Of a stretch of 64,000 bases of DNA, positions 8,911 through 18,320 are shown piece by piece. The translations under genes and the position numbers were made by a program. Under the pieces are notes generated by a model. That model searched no databases. It was given only the letters and a program-made list of their open reading frames with translations, and was not told where the DNA came from. This stretch comes from an uncultured Chloroflexia bacterium (GTDB taxonomy: Bacteria > Chloroflexota > Dehalococcoidia > DSTF01 > WHTK01), in contig CAVYJE010000028.1 of the NCBI GenBank assembly GCA_963768705.1, positions 90,571-154,570 on the forward strand, written 5' to 3'. Position 1 is the stretch's first letter, and each line of letters begins with the position of its first letter.

Positions 8911-8984
8911 GGAGTTCCTCCGCGTACGCATCCCTGACGGGCGTGCCGGAGGAAATGGAGATCGCAGCTGGCCCCGCTGCTCAT

Positions 8985-9076
8985 CACCACGCGCTTTCCT
9001 CCGCCGGCATTACCCGGATCAGGTTCGACGGGTTTGATCTCAGGCCGTCCTCAGGTCCGAAGACGACCACCCCGTG
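8985..9076 (-). promoter_or_regulatory. TPP (THI-box) riboswitch
   Basis: Minus-strand RNA CACGGGGUGG..CCUGAGAUCAAACCCGUCGAACCUGAUCCGGGUAAUGCCGGCGGAGGAAAGCGCGUGGUG. It has the P1 CACG/CGUG stem, GGGGUG, CUGAGA, ACCC, GAACCUGAUC, GGGUAAUGCCGGCG and AGGAAAG, all in canonical order and spacing. Confidence 0.85.
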
Positions 9077-9094
9077 CGTAGCGGCCCCAGCATA

Positions 9095-13648: not shown

Positions 13649-13736
13649 GGAGGGGTGGCAGAGCGGTTTAATGCGGCGGTCTTGAAAACCGCTGTGGGGC
13701 AACTCACCGGGGGTTCGAATCCCTCCCCCTCCGCCA
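13649..13736 (+). tRNA. tRNA-Ser (anticodon TGA)
   Basis: 88 nt. Acceptor stem GGAGGGG/CCCCTCC; anticodon loop CU-UGA-AA; long variable arm; T-loop GGTTCGAATCC; encoded CCA end. Confidence 0.85.
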
Positions 13737-13794: not shown

Positions 13795-13862
13795 GCGCAA
13801 CGTTAACAGACCTGAAGGCTGGCCTGACTCTTGTGTAGCGTGAGCTTGCGTTAACGTTGCAG
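13795..13862. repeat. pair of inverted 11-bp sites GCAACGTTAAC / GTTAACGTTGC about 40 bp apart, between the tRNA and the island
   Basis: gcGCAACGTTAACag at 13795-13809 and gcGTTAACGTTGCag at 13849-13862. A related AACGCGTTAACATTGCGG lies at 12022-12040 just upstream of the PEP-enzyme gene. Confidence 0.3.
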
Positions 13863-14054
13863 AATTGCTGCCAGTGTGTCCGAATGGCCCCCACGGTTGC
13901 TTGAAATTACCCCCGCCGGGTGTCTGGTCACGTGATGTCTTTCGTGATCCCTGGCAGCGCTTTACCTGAAAGGAGATCGTCTTGATTCCAGCTAGCTAGT
14001 GACTCCATTTGCCGCCATCAGGCGGGTTTTTCAAAAGCGAGGAGGGCTTCGAAA

Positions 14055-14708
14055 ATGAGTCGAAGCATTTTGTTAAGCATCATGTTCATCGCGGGTACGC
14101 TGGGCGTCATCGCCTTCAGTGCCGCCCAGTTCACGGACTTCGAGACCGATACGTCCGATCCCATTGACGCTGGAACTCTCAATTTGGAAATCGCCAACGT
14201 AACAACCTGCACTGTAGATGCCGACGGCCTTGAGGGTGATCCGGGCGAGGCTGACGGCGACACGCAGGCCACTTGTGACTTCAGTGTCCAGCACACAGGC
14301 TCGCTCAACAACGCGGACCTCTACCTCAAGATCGACGACGTCACGGCTTTCGCGTGTACGGACGCAGCCAACGGCGGCCGGGACGACGACTCTGACTATT
14401 GCGACGGTGGCGCCGATCTAACCTCGGACGAGTTCGATCTGATCAGCCTCGTAATCACGGCTGGTGGTGGCGAGGACTACACGCCGCTTACGCAGGATAC
14501 GTTGACTAACTACATCGACCAATGTGGCCTGATCGACAGCGATGTCGATAGCGGGGACACGGTTGAGGGAACCTATACGGTTGAGCTCTTTCAGGATCGC
14601 ACGACCAATGTGATGCAGGGTGACGCGATCAAGCTCGTCCTTAGCTTCGAGTTGGCCGAGGATCAAGCGACCACGGGCGCCGGTTTTGCTGACTGCGTCG
14701 AAGACTAG
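14055..14708 (+). CDS. TasA/CalY/camelysin-like secreted protein with SipW-cognate signal peptide
   Basis: ATG with GAGGAGGG RBS; N-terminal TM signal then AAQFTDFETDTSD..GTLNLEI (TasA: AAFND..GTLDLSA); C-terminal ..GDAIKLVLSFELAEDQ (TasA ..NSIKLQFSFEATQ); acidic; locally low GC. Confidence 0.7.
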   Translation: MSRSILLSIMFIAGTLGVIAFSAAQFTDFETDTSDPIDAGTLNLEIANVTTCTVDADGLEGDPGEADGDTQATCDFSVQHTGSLNNADLYLKIDDVTAFACTDAANGGRDDDSDYCDGGADLTSDEFDLISLVITAGGGEDYTPLTQDTLTNYIDQCGLIDSDVDSGDTVEGTYTVELFQDRTTNVMQGDAIKLVLSFELAEDQATTGAGFADCVED

Positions 14709-14724
14709 GGCTCGCTGTTGATGT

Positions 14725-15321
14725 TTGACTTCTGAGGCTAGCTTCGTGATTGCTGACGGCTATCGATTATTGAGTCCCCATTTGCGGGGACCAGGGTGGT
14801 GGTTGCCTCGCCTTGCGCGTGGCGGTATGGCGCTGGTCGCCCTCTTGCTGGGCTTTGCCGCGCTGTTTGCCCTGATCGGTCCGCAATTCGGTTACAGCTA
14901 TGCGGTGGTCAAGAGCGGCTCAATGGCGCCGGCCTACGGTGTAGGGGCCGTCATCGTGGTCGACGAGGTCAATCCGTCCTCGGTGCAGGTCGGAGACGTG
15001 GTCAGCTTCCGTCTCCCCGAGAGGCCGAGTGACGAGATCGTGACGCACCGGGTCGTCGAGGTGCTTAGCGAGGACGGAGCACTGCAATTTCGGACCAAGG
15101 GCGACGCGAACGAGGAGCCCGACCCTCGCCTCATCGAGGCTAGTCAGGTGAAGGGGCGCATCGTATTCGGTGTGCCCTGGATTGGACGTCTCGCGCCGAC
15201 GCTTCAAGCCAAGGGTCTGTTCTTCCTGGTTGTCCTCGCTTGTGGCGGACTGCTCATCGCTGGTGAGTTGGCCAACATCTTTCGGGAGCTACGTGGTCCG
15301 AGGGAGCGGCCTCTTGGGTAA
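14725..15321 (+). CDS. sipW: signal peptidase I, archaeal/ER (SipW) type
   Basis: ..AVVKSGSMAPAYGVGAVIVV.. (catalytic Ser), ..VTHRVVEV.. (His), KGDANEEPD, C-terminal TM anchor. The track start is a TTG; the GTG at 14746 or the ATG at 14824 may be the true start. Confidence 0.8.
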   Translation: MTSEASFVIADGYRLLSPHLRGPGWWLPRLARGGMALVALLLGFAALFALIGPQFGYSYAVVKSGSMAPAYGVGAVIVVDEVNPSSVQVGDVVSFRLPERPSDEIVTHRVVEVLSEDGALQFRTKGDANEEPDPRLIEASQVKGRIVFGVPWIGRLAPTLQAKGLFFLVVLACGGLLIAGELANIFRELRGPRERPLG

Positions 15322-15330
15322 CGGAGTGTG

Positions 15331-16428
15331 ATGAAGAAGACTGCGGTGCAAGGGCAAGGAGCGTGGCGGCGATTGGGCCGTCCGGTGATTCTTTGCGCCC
15401 TGGTGGCAAGTCTTCTCCTTTGGCTCGCGTCAGGACATGTGCCCTATACGAGCGGTCAATTTGCTGATTACGAAACCGATACCAGCGATGCGCTCTGGAT
15501 GAGTACCCATCCGGCCGACATCAAAATCGTCGTGAGTGCTGACGCCCCAGGCTTCATCGAGTTCACCAGCGACATTCCCGGATGCCCGTCCTCCTTCAGC
15601 TTTACTTTCGCAGAGGCAGGGTCGCAATCGTGGTTGTGCAACCCGGTCCCGGCAGGAACATACGAGGTCACTGAGACCACGCTTGGCTGGGACATCACAA
15701 TCAGCTGCATCGAGTCTGACACCGAGAACAGCGATGACGATAACCCCCCTTCAGCGACGATCGTCCTTGAGGAATACGAGAAGGTCATGTGTACCTTCAC
15801 GAACGAAATCGTCGACACCGGCAGCCTTGCCGTCGATCTCGACTACTCTGACGACTCCGTGATCGGGCTCGACGTAAACGTCGCATGTGATAGTGGTGCT
15901 TCGCCGGACACCAATGGCATGACCGCCTACGAAGGCACACCTGCTGAGTTCCAAATCAACGACCTGCCGCCCGGTGGTACATCCTGCGACGCGGAACTCG
16001 ACAGTCCGCCCGCAGACTATGCCGTGGACGACTCGGACTGCGCAGGTGTTTCACTAACGCCGGTTTTCCCGGATGCCGTTTGCACCATCGTCCTGACCAA
16101 GCTGGGTTCGATTACGTTCCTTCAAGACTCACCATCTGGCGAAGAATCGACCGACGTTACATTCGAGTTCTCGTCCAACCTTTCTGATTGTGAGCCGGGA
16201 CAGTTCCTGTTGGCGGAAGACGATGGCAGCGAGACCTGTAGTGGTCTTGTCGAGGACACGTACACCGTTACGCAGATACCGGGGGACTTGCCGTCTGGCT
16301 GGATTCTCTCCGACATCGACTGCAGTGCAGTGGATTCTGAGAACGATCTGGTTGCCGGAACTGTCACGATTGACCTGCAGCCTGGCGAGGACGTGACCTG
16401 CGTGTTCGTCAACGAGGTGCCTTCGTGA
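15331..16428 (+). CDS. secreted Cys-rich protein with SipW-cognate signal peptide and three tandem ~100-aa beta-sandwich (prealbumin/SpaA-like) repeats
   Basis: Signal peptide followed by SGQFADYETDTSD, the same motif as 14055. Three repeats each end in ..GTYxVTE..GW.I..I.C.. / ..G(E)(D)VTCxFxNE. Acidic. Starts at ATG 15331 (the track's 15328 is a GTG). Confidence 0.6.
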   Translation: MKKTAVQGQGAWRRLGRPVILCALVASLLLWLASGHVPYTSGQFADYETDTSDALWMSTHPADIKIVVSADAPGFIEFTSDIPGCPSSFSFTFAEAGSQSWLCNPVPAGTYEVTETTLGWDITISCIESDTENSDDDNPPSATIVLEEYEKVMCTFTNEIVDTGSLAVDLDYSDDSVIGLDVNVACDSGASPDTNGMTAYEGTPAEFQINDLPPGGTSCDAELDSPPADYAVDDSDCAGVSLTPVFPDAVCTIVLTKLGSITFLQDSPSGEESTDVTFEFSSNLSDCEPGQFLLAEDDGSETCSGLVEDTYTVTQIPGDLPSGWILSDIDCSAVDSENDLVAGTVTIDLQPGEDVTCVFVNEVPS

Positions 16429-18320
16429 GTCGCCTCGTCTCGCGCAACAATGTGCTTCGGCTGGTCCTGGTCCTCTTCGTGGCGTCGTTCATCACGGCCA
16501 TCTACGCGACTTCCTCCTCTCGTCTAGGTGGCCGGGTGCCCGTCGTCCTTGCGGAGGCGGGCGGCGTCGTGGACGTACAGATCGATGACGGCAGCGGTAG
16601 TCTCGTGTTCACGCCGGCCGAGTGTCAGACCCAGATCGCCTCGCTCTCGCAGTGCACGACAACGCTCGAGGTGGTAAACGCGGGCGGAACCGACAGCGCC
16701 GAGTTCGAGTACTCAATCGATGTCTGGGCTGATACGAACGGCGTCGACAACGGCGACATGGGCTACCACGACGACGATTTCAGTGCCTGCTACAACGTCA
16801 CGCTGGTCAAGGGTGGCACGCCCAACATGACCGCGACCAAGCCGCATGTTGGGCCGCTCTTCGGTGATTCGCTGCAGCTGGGCCAGTCGAAGGAGTGGAG
16901 CCTCGCGCTCGCCGTCAAGGGCGACAACAGCTGCCAGGGCGCGACCACAACCGTCATCGTCGCCGTGCTGGCGTCGGATGTCCCCGGCTTCTTCGATGAC
17001 ATCAAGCCGGTGCCGACGCTCGTGCCTTCGCCCAGTGTCGTGGCAGTAGCCGAGTCTCCAACGGTGACTGAAGAGACTCCAGGTCCGGCTTACGAAATCG
17101 AGGATGACGAACAGGCTCAGGCGCCAGTAGAGACCGTGACGGAGACCGCCACGCCAGAGCCGACATCGACCGCGACGCCGCGACCTGCCACCCCCACGCT
17201 GGTGCCCGCAACGGCGGTTGTGCCGGTTGCGACCGCGACGCCAAGCCCGACGCCTTCGCCGACGGCAGAGGTCAGCAAGAAGCCAGGCCGCGAAGATGGG
17301 CCGAACTTCCTGACCCAGGAGATCCCCAGTCCGAGCGCGATCTCCACCAACGTGAAGGTGGTTGCCACCAACTTCACGCTCTCGCTGCTTGCGCTGTGCG
17401 TGATCCTGGTGGCAACGACGGTATTCAACTCCACGCTGGAGGAGAACGCCATCGAAATCGGCGTCGTGATGAACCGCCTCACCGGCCCCACGACGAGAGT
17501 GGGCAAGGTCCTCGGCTGGATCGACCTGGACGACGAGGACGATGACAGGCCTGGCTGGCTGGCGTCTCTGCTGAAACCCCTGGGTATCGTGGCGATCACG
17601 GCCCTTATCTACACTGCTCTGGAGCCCGACTTCGGCTTCAATAATGAGACGCTGACCCTCACGGTGGCGCTGATGGCCGGCATCGCCATGAGTACCTTCC
17701 TGTACGAAGGCGGCCAGGTCTTCTGGTCGTCGAAGCGATATCGCACGCCGGCGGCCATGCGCGTCTACCCGATGGCGATCGTGATCGCGGTGGTTTCGGT
17801 GCTCATGACGAAGTTCGTGAGCCTGCACCCCGGCGTGATCTTTGGCTTCGTCACCGCCGCAACGATCTTCCCGCGAGGCGCCATGTCGCCCAAGGAGAAG
17901 GGGATGATCGTGCTGGTGCCCCTTGTCGGCCTGCTCGCGACCTCGATCATCGCCTTCCTGCTCATCGAACCGTTGCGCGCGTACTCGGTCGAACACCCCG
18001 GCGTGTGGAACGCCCTGCCGGAGACGGTCGCCATCGCCCTCTTCGTCGGTGGTGCCCAGAGCGCTCTGCTGATCCTGATCCCCGTGACGTTCAACGACGG
18101 TGAGAAGATCTGGGAGTGGAACAAGCTGGTGTGGTTCGCCATCGCCCTGCCGGCGAGCTTCCTGTTCTTCCACGTGATGATCAATAGCGGTGGCGACTAC
18201 GGTGACATCGTGGACAACGGCAAGGCACTGACGTTGCTGATTACCGCGTTTACCTTCCTGGGGGTCGCGGGCCTGACCTGGCTATACTTCCGCATACGCT
18301 TTGGACCCGGTGAAAACTGA
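16425..18320 (+). CDS. polytopic membrane protein: N-terminal TM + TasA-like ectodomain + Pro/Thr-rich linker + ~10-TM C-terminal domain
   Basis: GTG start overlapping the upstream stop (GTGA) with a GAGGTG RBS. Ectodomain ..CTTTLEVVNAGGTDSAEFEYSIDVW.. resembles the TasA beta-sandwich. PT-rich ATPEPTSTATPRPATPTLVPATAVVP region. Ten predicted TM helices of unknown family. Confidence 0.55.
   Translation: MSRLVSRNNVLRLVLVLFVASFITAIYATSSSRLGGRVPVVLAEAGGVVDVQIDDGSGSLVFTPAECQTQIASLSQCTTTLEVVNAGGTDSAEFEYSIDVWADTNGVDNGDMGYHDDDFSACYNVTLVKGGTPNMTATKPHVGPLFGDSLQLGQSKEWSLALAVKGDNSCQGATTTVIVAVLASDVPGFFDDIKPVPTLVPSPSVVAVAESPTVTEETPGPAYEIEDDEQAQAPVETVTETATPEPTSTATPRPATPTLVPATAVVPVATATPSPTPSPTAEVSKKPGREDGPNFLTQEIPSPSAISTNVKVVATNFTLSLLALCVILVATTVFNSTLEENAIEIGVVMNRLTGPTTRVGKVLGWIDLDDEDDDRPGWLASLLKPLGIVAITALIYTALEPDFGFNNETLTLTVALMAGIAMSTFLYEGGQVFWSSKRYRTPAAMRVYPMAIVIAVVSVLMTKFVSLHPGVIFGFVTAATIFPRGAMSPKEKGMIVLVPLVGLLATSIIAFLLIEPLRAYSVEHPGVWNALPETVAIALFVGGAQSALLILIPVTFNDGEKIWEWNKLVWFAIALPASFLFFHVMINSGGDYGDIVDNGKALTLLITAFTFLGVAGLTWLYFRIRFGPGEN

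Follow-up and report, generated by a model that had tools for sequence, protein, structure and literature searches.

In Bacillus subtilis, residues 28-38 of TasA form a structurally proven donor strand, and TapA, the other substrate of SipW, shares this stretch with TasA to donate a strand and thereby start the fibre (PMC9674648, PMC10151520). The sipW-bsaA-bsaB-bsaC genes of Clostridium perfringens encode SipW, TasA-like subunits assembled into polymers through donor-strand exchange, and a larger secreted accessory protein; for BsaA, strand exchange has been proposed to occur while the precursor is held in the membrane, with SipW cutting afterwards (PMC11580942). In the same superfamily as TasA, the AbpX, AbpA, and Tafi loci combine a major subunit, a tip, minor subunits, a dedicated type I signal peptidase, and a membrane-bound or LPXTG-linked anchor; the subunits have a pI of about 4, and for some of the proteins the resemblance to the major subunit is limited to the N-terminal ~40 residues (bioRxiv 10.64898/2026.01.04.697558; PMC11821415; PMC9245690). 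TafF and LPXTG anchors have been described at the Tafi and AbpX loci (PMC11821415; bioRxiv 10.64898/2026.01.04.697558).

This study analyzed a stretch of 64 kb, hereafter called the window, whose forward strand carries a four-gene operon in the order A-peptidase-C-D. Gene A (14055..14708) encodes a very acidic secreted protein of 217 aa. The SipW/ER-type signal peptidase I gene (14725..15321) can be read as 198 aa from a TTG, but the GTG at 14746 is the likelier start and yields the 191 aa given by the gene caller. Gene C (15328..16428) encodes an acidic secreted protein of 366 aa if translation begins at the GTG at 15328, and of 365 aa if it begins at the ATG at 15331; gene D occupies 16425..18320. 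The frames of A, the peptidase, and C (from the ATG) were as described in the initial annotation, although the region marked there ended at 15380 and the C motif discussed below lies beyond it. A scan of the locus for promoters and terminators was uninformative.

As in the B. subtilis operon, a SipW-type peptidase is encoded together with two dissimilar secreted proteins whose mature N-termini are alike; the gene order differs from tapA-sipW-tasA, the fourth gene carries an FGLLP domain with nine transmembrane (TM) segments, and the proteins are extremely acidic and cysteine-rich. The same gene set was found in six related loci (L001, L003, L004, L006, L007, and L008). In each, a SipW-like peptidase neighbours A-like and C-like proteins whose N-termini match, and the C bodies differed among the loci, being SpaA-like or RTX-like. 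We consider it likely, with a probability of roughly 0.68, that the operon encodes a TasA-superfamily extracellular fibre in which the shared motif is the exposed N-terminal donor strand, A is the core, C is the tip or initiator, and D is the probable anchor. This is a known design in a little-studied, probably Chloroflexota, lineage and does not overturn current understanding; it would add a Chloroflexota-type operon, readable as tip, core, peptidase, and anchor, to the biofilm and pilus fibres of the TasA superfamily.

The shared motif reads QFTDFETDTSD in A (residues 25-35, 14127..14159, + strand) and QFADYETDTSD in C (residues 44-54, 15457..15489, + strand). The initial annotation had described an almost identical 13-residue stretch directly after the hydrophobic segments. 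The shared motif was real, but its core comprised 11 residues with 9 identities; the 15-residue strings quoted there likewise contained 9 identities, together with conservative F/Y, S/T, A/S, and A/G pairs. The position relative to the hydrophobic segment held for A, in which the motif lies 3 residues downstream, and more loosely for C (about 9 residues). In a six-frame translation of the window, ETDTSD and QF.D.E each occurred exactly twice, both times at the A and C motif sites. A BLASTP comparison of A with C returned the N-terminal match only (E 5e-05 for this single comparison; E >= 3 for all other segments). A 20-column profile HMM of the mature A N-terminus, searched against all 859 ORFs of the window, was too short to discriminate, scoring C at 3.4 bits (E 4.3).

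That the similarity is a functionless remnant of duplication or local gene conversion between two neighbouring 5' ends, or a product of chance, appears very improbable. The best ungapped 11-mer identity between A and C was 9 (at positions 25 and 44), whereas composition-preserving shuffles (n=300) never exceeded 7 of 11. The 39-nt motif regions of the two genes were identical at 25 positions in the window, and different codons were used for six of the nine identical residues, placing the constraint on the peptide and excluding a recent copy of the DNA. The same held in L003 (different codons for 6/7 identical residues), and the pairing persisted in seven loci, the window and the six others, with different C bodies. 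In L001, by contrast, the motif regions of A and C were identical at 34/39 nt, a value that leaves room for some gene conversion there.

To place the motif relative to the signal peptides, the predicted cleavage sites were compared. The signal peptide of A was assigned to residues 1-24 (14055..14126, + strand) on the basis of the AlphaFold2 (AF2) helix and the -3/-1 rule, which cleavage after A24 satisfies. The predicted sites were SAA|QF in A and TSG|QF in C, the latter from the motif search and the cleavage-site rule, with ASG|H, 7 residues upstream, as an alternative candidate in C. The predicted +1 residue thus coincided with the start of the motif in both proteins. When A and C were aligned at these sites, 2 of 20 residues were identical upstream and 9 of 11 downstream, and a profile of the A signal peptide matched nothing in the window other than A. 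This places the shared stretch at the predicted mature N-terminus, and the proposal that conservation was confined to the signal and cleavage region was not supported.

These results bear on whether the motif serves mainly as a recognition determinant that sends the A and C precursors to a private SipW-like peptidase and not to LepB, as first proposed. For type I signal peptidases, the main determinants are positions -3 and -1 together with the hydrophobic region. The residues shared here are +1 to +11, and A and C have unrelated hydrophobic regions. Several observations are nevertheless in keeping with recognition, including the direct contact of the motif with both predicted cleavage sites and the conservation between orthologues of the entire A signal peptide and of the PYTSG region preceding the cleavage site of C. 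In the comparison with L001, PYTSG|QF of C was kept and its hydrophobic region had diverged; the first 31 residues of A were identical at 30 positions, against only about 45-50% for the whole proteins. This unusual conservation of the A signal peptide hints that, for A, recognition within the membrane is important as well.

In favour of the donor-strand reading, A and C co-varied at their N-termini across the loci: the matched pairing summed to 45 identities, compared with 29.7 on average, a value reached in 6 of 5040 permutations. The co-variation lay mostly between clades, and within clades the observed pairing only tied for the maximum. The first mature residue followed the same pattern (Q/Q, A/A, and V/I in A/C), which also agrees with recognition by the peptidase. 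Co-variation of A and C would also be expected if the peptidase were their common partner.

The NCBIfam model TIGR04088, "SipW-dependent-type signal peptide" (cognate_SipW), likewise lends itself to a reading in terms of recognition. Its layout resembles that of A and C, with a hydrophobic region, small-x-small, and then x-F-x-D-x-E ... AGTLDL. Alignment against this profile gave a divided result. Neither A nor C of the window produced a reported hit even at E<=10 and both thus fell below the 19-bit cut-off, but 18 of 25 A relatives matched (E<=0.1). The TasA control scored 41.4 bits, the A-like proteins of L004 and L006 passed with 26.9 and 32.5 bits, the L001 orthologue of A reached 17.7 bits, and the C-like proteins of L006, L007, and L008 gave sub-threshold hits of 12.5-16.2 bits. 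The adjacency to a SipW/archaeal-type signal peptidase I that TIGR04088 calls for was present in the window and in the six related loci. Half of the profile, however, corresponds to TasA residues 28-44, the donor strand (PMC9674648), so that a curated model named for a signal peptide spans the strand now known to interlock subunits. In addition, the alternating F-x-D-x-E pattern and the TasA and AbpX structures already give the motif a structural role, and archaeal AbpA and AbpB retain the donor strand without a dedicated peptidase (PMC9245690). Recognition of residues just past the cleavage site is unnecessary to explain the data, and we regard recognition as the main function of the motif as unlikely. 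What resembled an address label for a private peptidase is better read as an interlocking fibre strand.

The assignment of A to the TasA superfamily came from family-level comparison. As a single sequence, A gave no hit in the PDB, to Pfam PF12389 (Peptidase_M73, the camelysin/TasA family), or in NCBIfam, where the TasA equivalog NF046066 (cut-off 450) was also without a hit. A profile of 25 A relatives (A2) matched the TasA fibre 8aur_A and TasA 5of1_A with E 1.7e-7, in an alignment bounded by the N-terminal F and the N..QG..F..Q strand at the C-terminus. In this alignment, F26-x-D28 of the A family corresponded to TasA F29-x-D31, with the motif matching TasA from residue 29 onward, and A24, invariant in the family, corresponded to TasA A27 at position -1. 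Residues F26, D28, and E30 were invariant or nearly invariant across the 25 sequences, and 7 of the 12 such columns fell within residues 24-43 (A24, F26, D28, E30, A39, G40, and D43). Both the family conservation and the TasA alignment point to the motif as the mature N-terminus and putative donor strand.

The predicted structure agreed with this assignment. The AF2 model of A had a pLDDT of 83.5 (an earlier run from 3 sequences, with pLDDT 54.6, was discarded), and a Foldseek search of the PDB returned 8aur_A as the top match and the only one at E<1e-3 (9e-7, probability 1.00, TM 0.41). The model indicates a jelly-roll/beta-sandwich fold like that of TasA, with a modest TM-score of 0.41. In the monomer, residues 3-22 were helical and residues 23-43 unstructured. 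A is homologous to TasA at the family level only and is not a TasA equivalog. It thus differs from the B. subtilis protein in not being an orthologue of TasA, and roughly half of the A relatives give weak matches only. Two A relatives matched TIGR04090, the BsaA family; in contrast to C. perfringens, no type IV pilus linkage was found here, and the accessory protein differs. The A2 profile matched AbpX 9sj2_C weakly (E 0.066 over about 70 positions). Predicted mature A and C both have a pI of 4.05 (23% and 20% D+E, respectively), close to the value of about 4 for the AbpX, AbpA, and Tafi subunits.

The intervening gene proved to be SipW-like, as originally described. The peptidase scored 89 bits against TIGR02228, the archaeal/ER-type signal peptidase I (cut-off 51.85), and matched Pfam Peptidase_S26, whereas its scores against the bacterial-type TIGR02227 (25.8 bits, cut-off 47) and the Bacillus SipW equivalog NF046067 (81 bits, cut-off 190) were below threshold. 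The last of these values indicates a SipW-like enzyme and not a SipW orthologue. Its translation contains SGSM, THR, and GDAN, among them the Ser and His motifs, and two TM segments, one N-terminal and one C-terminal; the peptidases of the AbpX loci have 10. A and C are probably substrates of this enzyme. The peptidase class, the TIGR04088 signature of the A family, and the contact between predicted cleavage site and motif make that part of the original proposal plausible.

The body of C matched Pfam SpaA_4 (1.6e-13), indicating prealbumin/SpaA-like domains and not the TapA fold found in B. subtilis, and a search of NCBIfam, including TapA (TIGR04087), returned no hit. C may work like TapA, yet it is not a member of the TapA family. 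The motif is missing from homologues of the C body, whose signal peptides are ordinary. A possible Tat signal in C (RRLGR) was dropped, as the L001 orthologue lacks the Arg pair; export here is apparently not Tat-dependent, in which it differs from the AbpX, AbpA, and Tafi systems. As C has complete Ig-like domains and carries the strand, it could only donate, which makes it the predicted tip or initiator.

We further analyzed gene D, whose product comprises an N-terminal TM segment or signal, an ectodomain (about 16527-16994, + strand), a Pro/Thr-rich linker, and about nine TM segments (17322-18272). Residues 300-616 matched NF041501, "FGLLP motif-containing membrane protein", with 174.5 bits (cut-off 150). 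The QF.D.E motif is absent from the N-terminus of D itself. The ectodomain shows homology to an LPXTG protein of L007 that is sortase-anchored (hhalign 97.7%, E 2e-12) and to the L008 subunit, which is secreted and bears the motif (92%, E 5.6e-7); this parallels the TafF and LPXTG anchors; on this basis and from the TM profile, D is a predicted membrane anchor and fibre acceptor. The L008 subunit without its N-terminus matched the profile of the D ectodomain (A4) and not A2. A TasA-like nature of the D ectodomain was considered and not adopted, since hhalign of A2 against A4 aligned only the last strand and was non-significant (probability 2.2%). D is accordingly no more than a candidate acceptor of the A strand. 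A DUF5305 accessory gene as at the AbpX, AbpA, and Tafi loci is absent here, and the polytopic FGLLP domain is undescribed in the corresponding reports (bioRxiv 10.64898/2026.01.04.697558, PMC11821415, PMC9245690).

From these comparisons, we infer the following course of fibre assembly. A and C would be exported through the Sec pathway and cut by the SipW-like peptidase immediately before Gln-Phe, so that both mature proteins begin with QF[TA]D[FY]ETDTSD. By homology to TasA, the motif strand would enter the beta-sandwich left open in the following A subunit, perhaps with bound Ca2+, and A would polymerise head to tail. C would start or cap the fibre, like TapA, AbpB, or TafC, and present its adhesin-like domains. 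D, whose membrane domain carries an ectodomain that is subunit-like but has no donor strand, would probably accept the last strand and anchor the fibre. The peptide QFADYETDTSDAL is a candidate nucleator of monomeric A, as an alternative to mature C.

A variant of this scheme is that the peptidase reads residues +1 to +4 and the same residues then serve as the donor strand, so that cleavage is coupled to assembly. The BsaA model of C. perfringens (PMC11580942) offers a precedent, and many lineages have dedicated peptidases of the SipW type linked to TasA-like genes (bioRxiv 10.64898/2026.01.04.697558; PMC9245690). The motif immediately adjoins the cleavage site, and the A signal peptide is strongly conserved; that signal peptide, however, is not shared by C, and the present data do not separate such dual use from a donor strand alone. 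We consider dual use improbable, somewhat more so than recognition as the main function.

For the donor-strand fibre proposed here, a speculative extension, to which we likewise assign a low probability, is that the FGLLP domain of D forms a platform embedded in the membrane, on which monoderm Chloroflexota would assemble TasA-like fibres, holding a subunit-like acceptor at the membrane surface and, with the two-TM SipW-like peptidase, coupling cleavage to insertion of the QF.D.E strand. If so, the platform would be the functional counterpart of the Gram-negative pilus usher/terminator and of the 10-TM peptidases of the AbpX loci. A link to fibre anchoring would give the uncharacterised FGLLP family a testable function. 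Members of the D family without a neighbouring peptidase were found in L005 and L009-L016, indicating that the FGLLP domain is not exclusive to these operons.

A PHROGs search returned no hits, and thus nothing suggested a phage origin. The A family appeared to be rare, with 3 word-index hits and 33 representatives. A scan of metagenomes for A loci found nothing, and the loci scan with the A alignment returned 1 genome locus; the nearest genome locus belongs to a Dehalococcoidia MAG.

Four tightly packed open reading frames, all in the same direction, extend from a tRNA-Ser gene (13649-13736) to position 18320. They encode A, a TasA-superfamily subunit (14055-14708, + strand, 217 aa); a signal peptidase located between A and C (14725-15321, + strand); C (15328-16428, + strand, 366 aa, or 365 aa if translation starts with the ATG at 15331); and D (16425-18320, + strand, 631 aa). 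The middle gene product matched TIGR02228 with 89 bits (cut-off, 51.85), exhibited one N-terminal and one C-terminal transmembrane segment, and contained the SGSM, THR, and GDAN motifs; on these sequence features, it is classified as an archaeal/ER-type (SipW-like) signal peptidase I. Its score of 81 bits against the Bacillus SipW equivalog model was under the cut-off of 190. The peptidase start is ambiguous; the longest frame begins with the TTG at 14725 (198 aa), whereas the GTG at 14746 (191 aa) is favoured by the gene caller and by the orthologue in the related locus L001 (MIADGYRLL…).

The motif QF[TA]D[FY]ETDTSD was found in A and C exactly as quoted in the initial annotation, namely as QFTDFETDTSD in A (14127-14159, + strand, residues 25-35) and QFADYETDTSD in C (15457-15489, + strand, residues 44-54). 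The interval originally assigned to the pair includes the motif of A, but the motif of C lies beyond its end coordinate. A six-frame translation of the 64-kb window contained no further occurrences of ETDTSD or QF.D.E, and BLASTP of A against C revealed N-terminal similarity only. The two 11-mers share nine identities (maximum of seven in 300 shuffles), and six of the nine identical residues are encoded by differing codons. The shared motif is real and reflects selection at the peptide level.

In a profile alignment, F26-T-D28 of A fell on F29-N-D31 of TasA, the chain of which in 8aur starts at A28, the first residue past the SipW cut (PMC9674648). The homologous cut in A is predicted at SAA|QF, a site that satisfies the -3/-1 rule and includes A24, which is invariant in the A family. 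The equivalent predicted site in C is TSG|QF; PYTSG|QF is kept in the L001 orthologue of C, the hydrophobic core of which has diverged. Both predicted mature proteins would thus start with the motif. When A and C were aligned at the predicted cut, 2 of 20 residues were identical upstream and 9 of 11 downstream, and a profile of the signal peptide of A matched A alone within the window. A and C thus have in common the first eleven residues of their predicted mature chains, and their signal peptides are unrelated.

A as a single sequence had no direct match in Pfam, NCBIfam, or PDB, and only two close relatives were found in 5.8 billion proteins. An exhaustive profile search yielded 33 relatives; in the family alignment, the N-terminal consensus reads MRRILFPLLVIGLAAGLFTLGSGAFFSDTETDTGNTITAGTLDL, and a strand near the C-terminus carries N..QGD. 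The family profile matched TasA both as a fibre (8aur) and as a monomer (5of1) with an E of 1.7e-7, and AbpX weakly (E 0.066). The TasA model was matched by 12 of 25 family members at E<=0.1, all with scores far below its cut-off of 450 bits, and TIGR04088 ('SipW-dependent-type signal peptide') by 18 of 25. The A-like proteins of the related loci L004 and L006 passed the TIGR04088 cut-off, the A and C of the window did not reach it, and several C-like proteins gave sub-threshold matches. The AF2 model of A on the family alignment (pLDDT 83.5) comprises a signal helix (3-22), an unstructured stretch (23-43), and a beta-sandwich thereafter; among PDB entries, only the TasA fibre matched it significantly, with an E of 9e-7 and a probability of 1.00. 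Six cysteines of A (C52, C74, C101, C116, C157, and C214) are invariant among close relatives, and C has twelve, mostly within motifs of the C[TV]F[TV]NE type located where domains end, which suggests disulfide-stabilised extracellular domains in both proteins. The family profile also matched 12 separate stretches of P0041 (1684 aa), best at profile positions 34-72 (AGTLDL region), making P0041 a giant protein composed of repeats of this segment.

The donor strand of TasA (residues 28-38) completes the beta-sandwich of the following subunit, and fibres are lost when it is deleted (PMC9674648). TapA, the other SipW substrate, is structurally unrelated to TasA, shares sequence with its donor strand, and donates this strand to start the fibre (PMC9674648, PMC10151520). 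In A and C, the motif has F at position 2, D at 4, and further acidic residues at 6, 8, and 11, and residues 24-43 of A hold 7 of the 12 most conserved family columns. Taken together, these features make a donor strand common to A and C the best reading of the motif. A would then be the core subunit of the fibre. Like TapA, AbpB, and TafC, C would be a tip or initiator that only donates its strand. Both proteins have a pI of 4.05 and 20-23% D+E; the proteins of AbpX loci have a pI of about 4 (bioRxiv 10.64898/2026.01.04.697558).

The initial annotation had instead proposed that the motif marks substrates for a private signal peptidase rather than the housekeeping LepB. Part of this proposal stands: A and C are likely substrates, and the predicted processing site adjoins the motif in both rather than lying far from it, so the findings named beforehand as contradicting the proposal did not appear. 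Conservation as a recognition mark in the signal region is not borne out, the conserved stretch being on the mature side, with a structural role documented in homologous systems; recognition of the motif by the peptidase may occur but is not required. For A, the first 31 residues (14055-14147), which comprise the signal peptide and the start of the motif, are identical at 30 of 31 positions to those of L001 (L001:383-475), compared with about 45-50% for the whole proteins. This constraint is unusually strong for a signal peptide and makes recognition at the membrane, or a coupling of cleavage and assembly of the kind modelled for BsaA (PMC11580942), plausible for A.

Six related loci carry the same gene set (L001, L003, L004, L006, L007, and L008; L003 is a Dehalococcoidia MAG). 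The window's C has prealbumin/SpaA-like domains, and proteins homologous to its body bear conventional signal peptides and no motif. C bodies are SpaA-like in most loci and RTX-like in L006 and L008; despite these different bodies, the A-like and C-like N-termini match each other in all six, as in L001 (QFTDFETTTSNP and QFTDVETTTSNP) and L008 (AFTDSDDVTGTL and AFTSSASVTGQL). Across the window and the six loci, matched A/C identities summed to 45, compared with a mean of 29.7 for permuted pairings, and 6 of 5040 permutations attained that sum; this co-variation is mostly between clades, and within clades the true pairing just ties for best. It shows a common partner, and an acceptor groove or the peptidase would produce the same pattern. 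In L003 (5129-6247), the SipW-like peptidase and the C-like protein (…VSA|QFTDSDSTTSN…) are joined in a single 372-aa frame, which is either a natural fusion of enzyme and substrate or the product of a frameshift or missing stop codon (contig coverage 1.3x).

In D, a transmembrane segment or signal at the N-terminus precedes an ectodomain of about 150 residues; a Pro/Thr-rich linker then leads to a polytopic domain (NF041501 'FGLLP', 174.5 bits) with about nine transmembrane segments. The motif is absent from D. The ectodomain is homologous to a 346-aa LPXTG protein of L007 (3730-4770, - strand; hhalign 97.7%, E 2e-12), in which LPVTG, a transmembrane segment, and KGGKR come after it, and which has a sortase gene close by (L007:1-69). 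The same ectodomain therefore appears sortase-anchored in L007, and in the window it is attached to a membrane domain of the FGLLP type. A second homologue is the body of a secreted motif-bearing 165-aa subunit with a SipW-type N-terminus (L006:712-1209 and L008:3602-4324; hhalign 92%, E 5.6e-7). With the N-terminus removed, this subunit did not detectably resemble the TasA-like A family, so two different subunit bodies use one N-terminal module. A subunit-like body that lacks a donor strand and is joined either to a membrane domain, as in D, or to a sortase signal has the form expected of an anchor or terminator, and D would serve as one. TafF in Tafi is a comparable anchor (PMC11821415), as are the LPXTG and SLH anchors of AbpX loci (bioRxiv 10.64898/2026.01.04.697558). 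Because direct similarity between the D ectodomain and the A family was not significant, we regard this role as a supported hypothesis. FGLLP-domain proteins also exist without a neighbouring peptidase.

The design of a TasA-like subunit, a SipW-type peptidase, and a strand-sharing accessory protein is already established in Bacillus, Clostridium, and archaea, and the locus is a divergent case of it, probably from Chloroflexota. Only the FGLLP membrane protein, as a candidate anchor, is less familiar. The G+C content is 0.56-0.58 across A to C (13800-16400) versus 0.65-0.70 in the flanks, the operon lies directly downstream of tRNA-Ser, and L003 and L004 have different neighbouring genes; together, these observations indicate that the operon may have been acquired horizontally. 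A TPP riboswitch (RF00059), which scored 63.4 bits and thus exceeded the gathering score, is located at 8979-9084 on the - strand.
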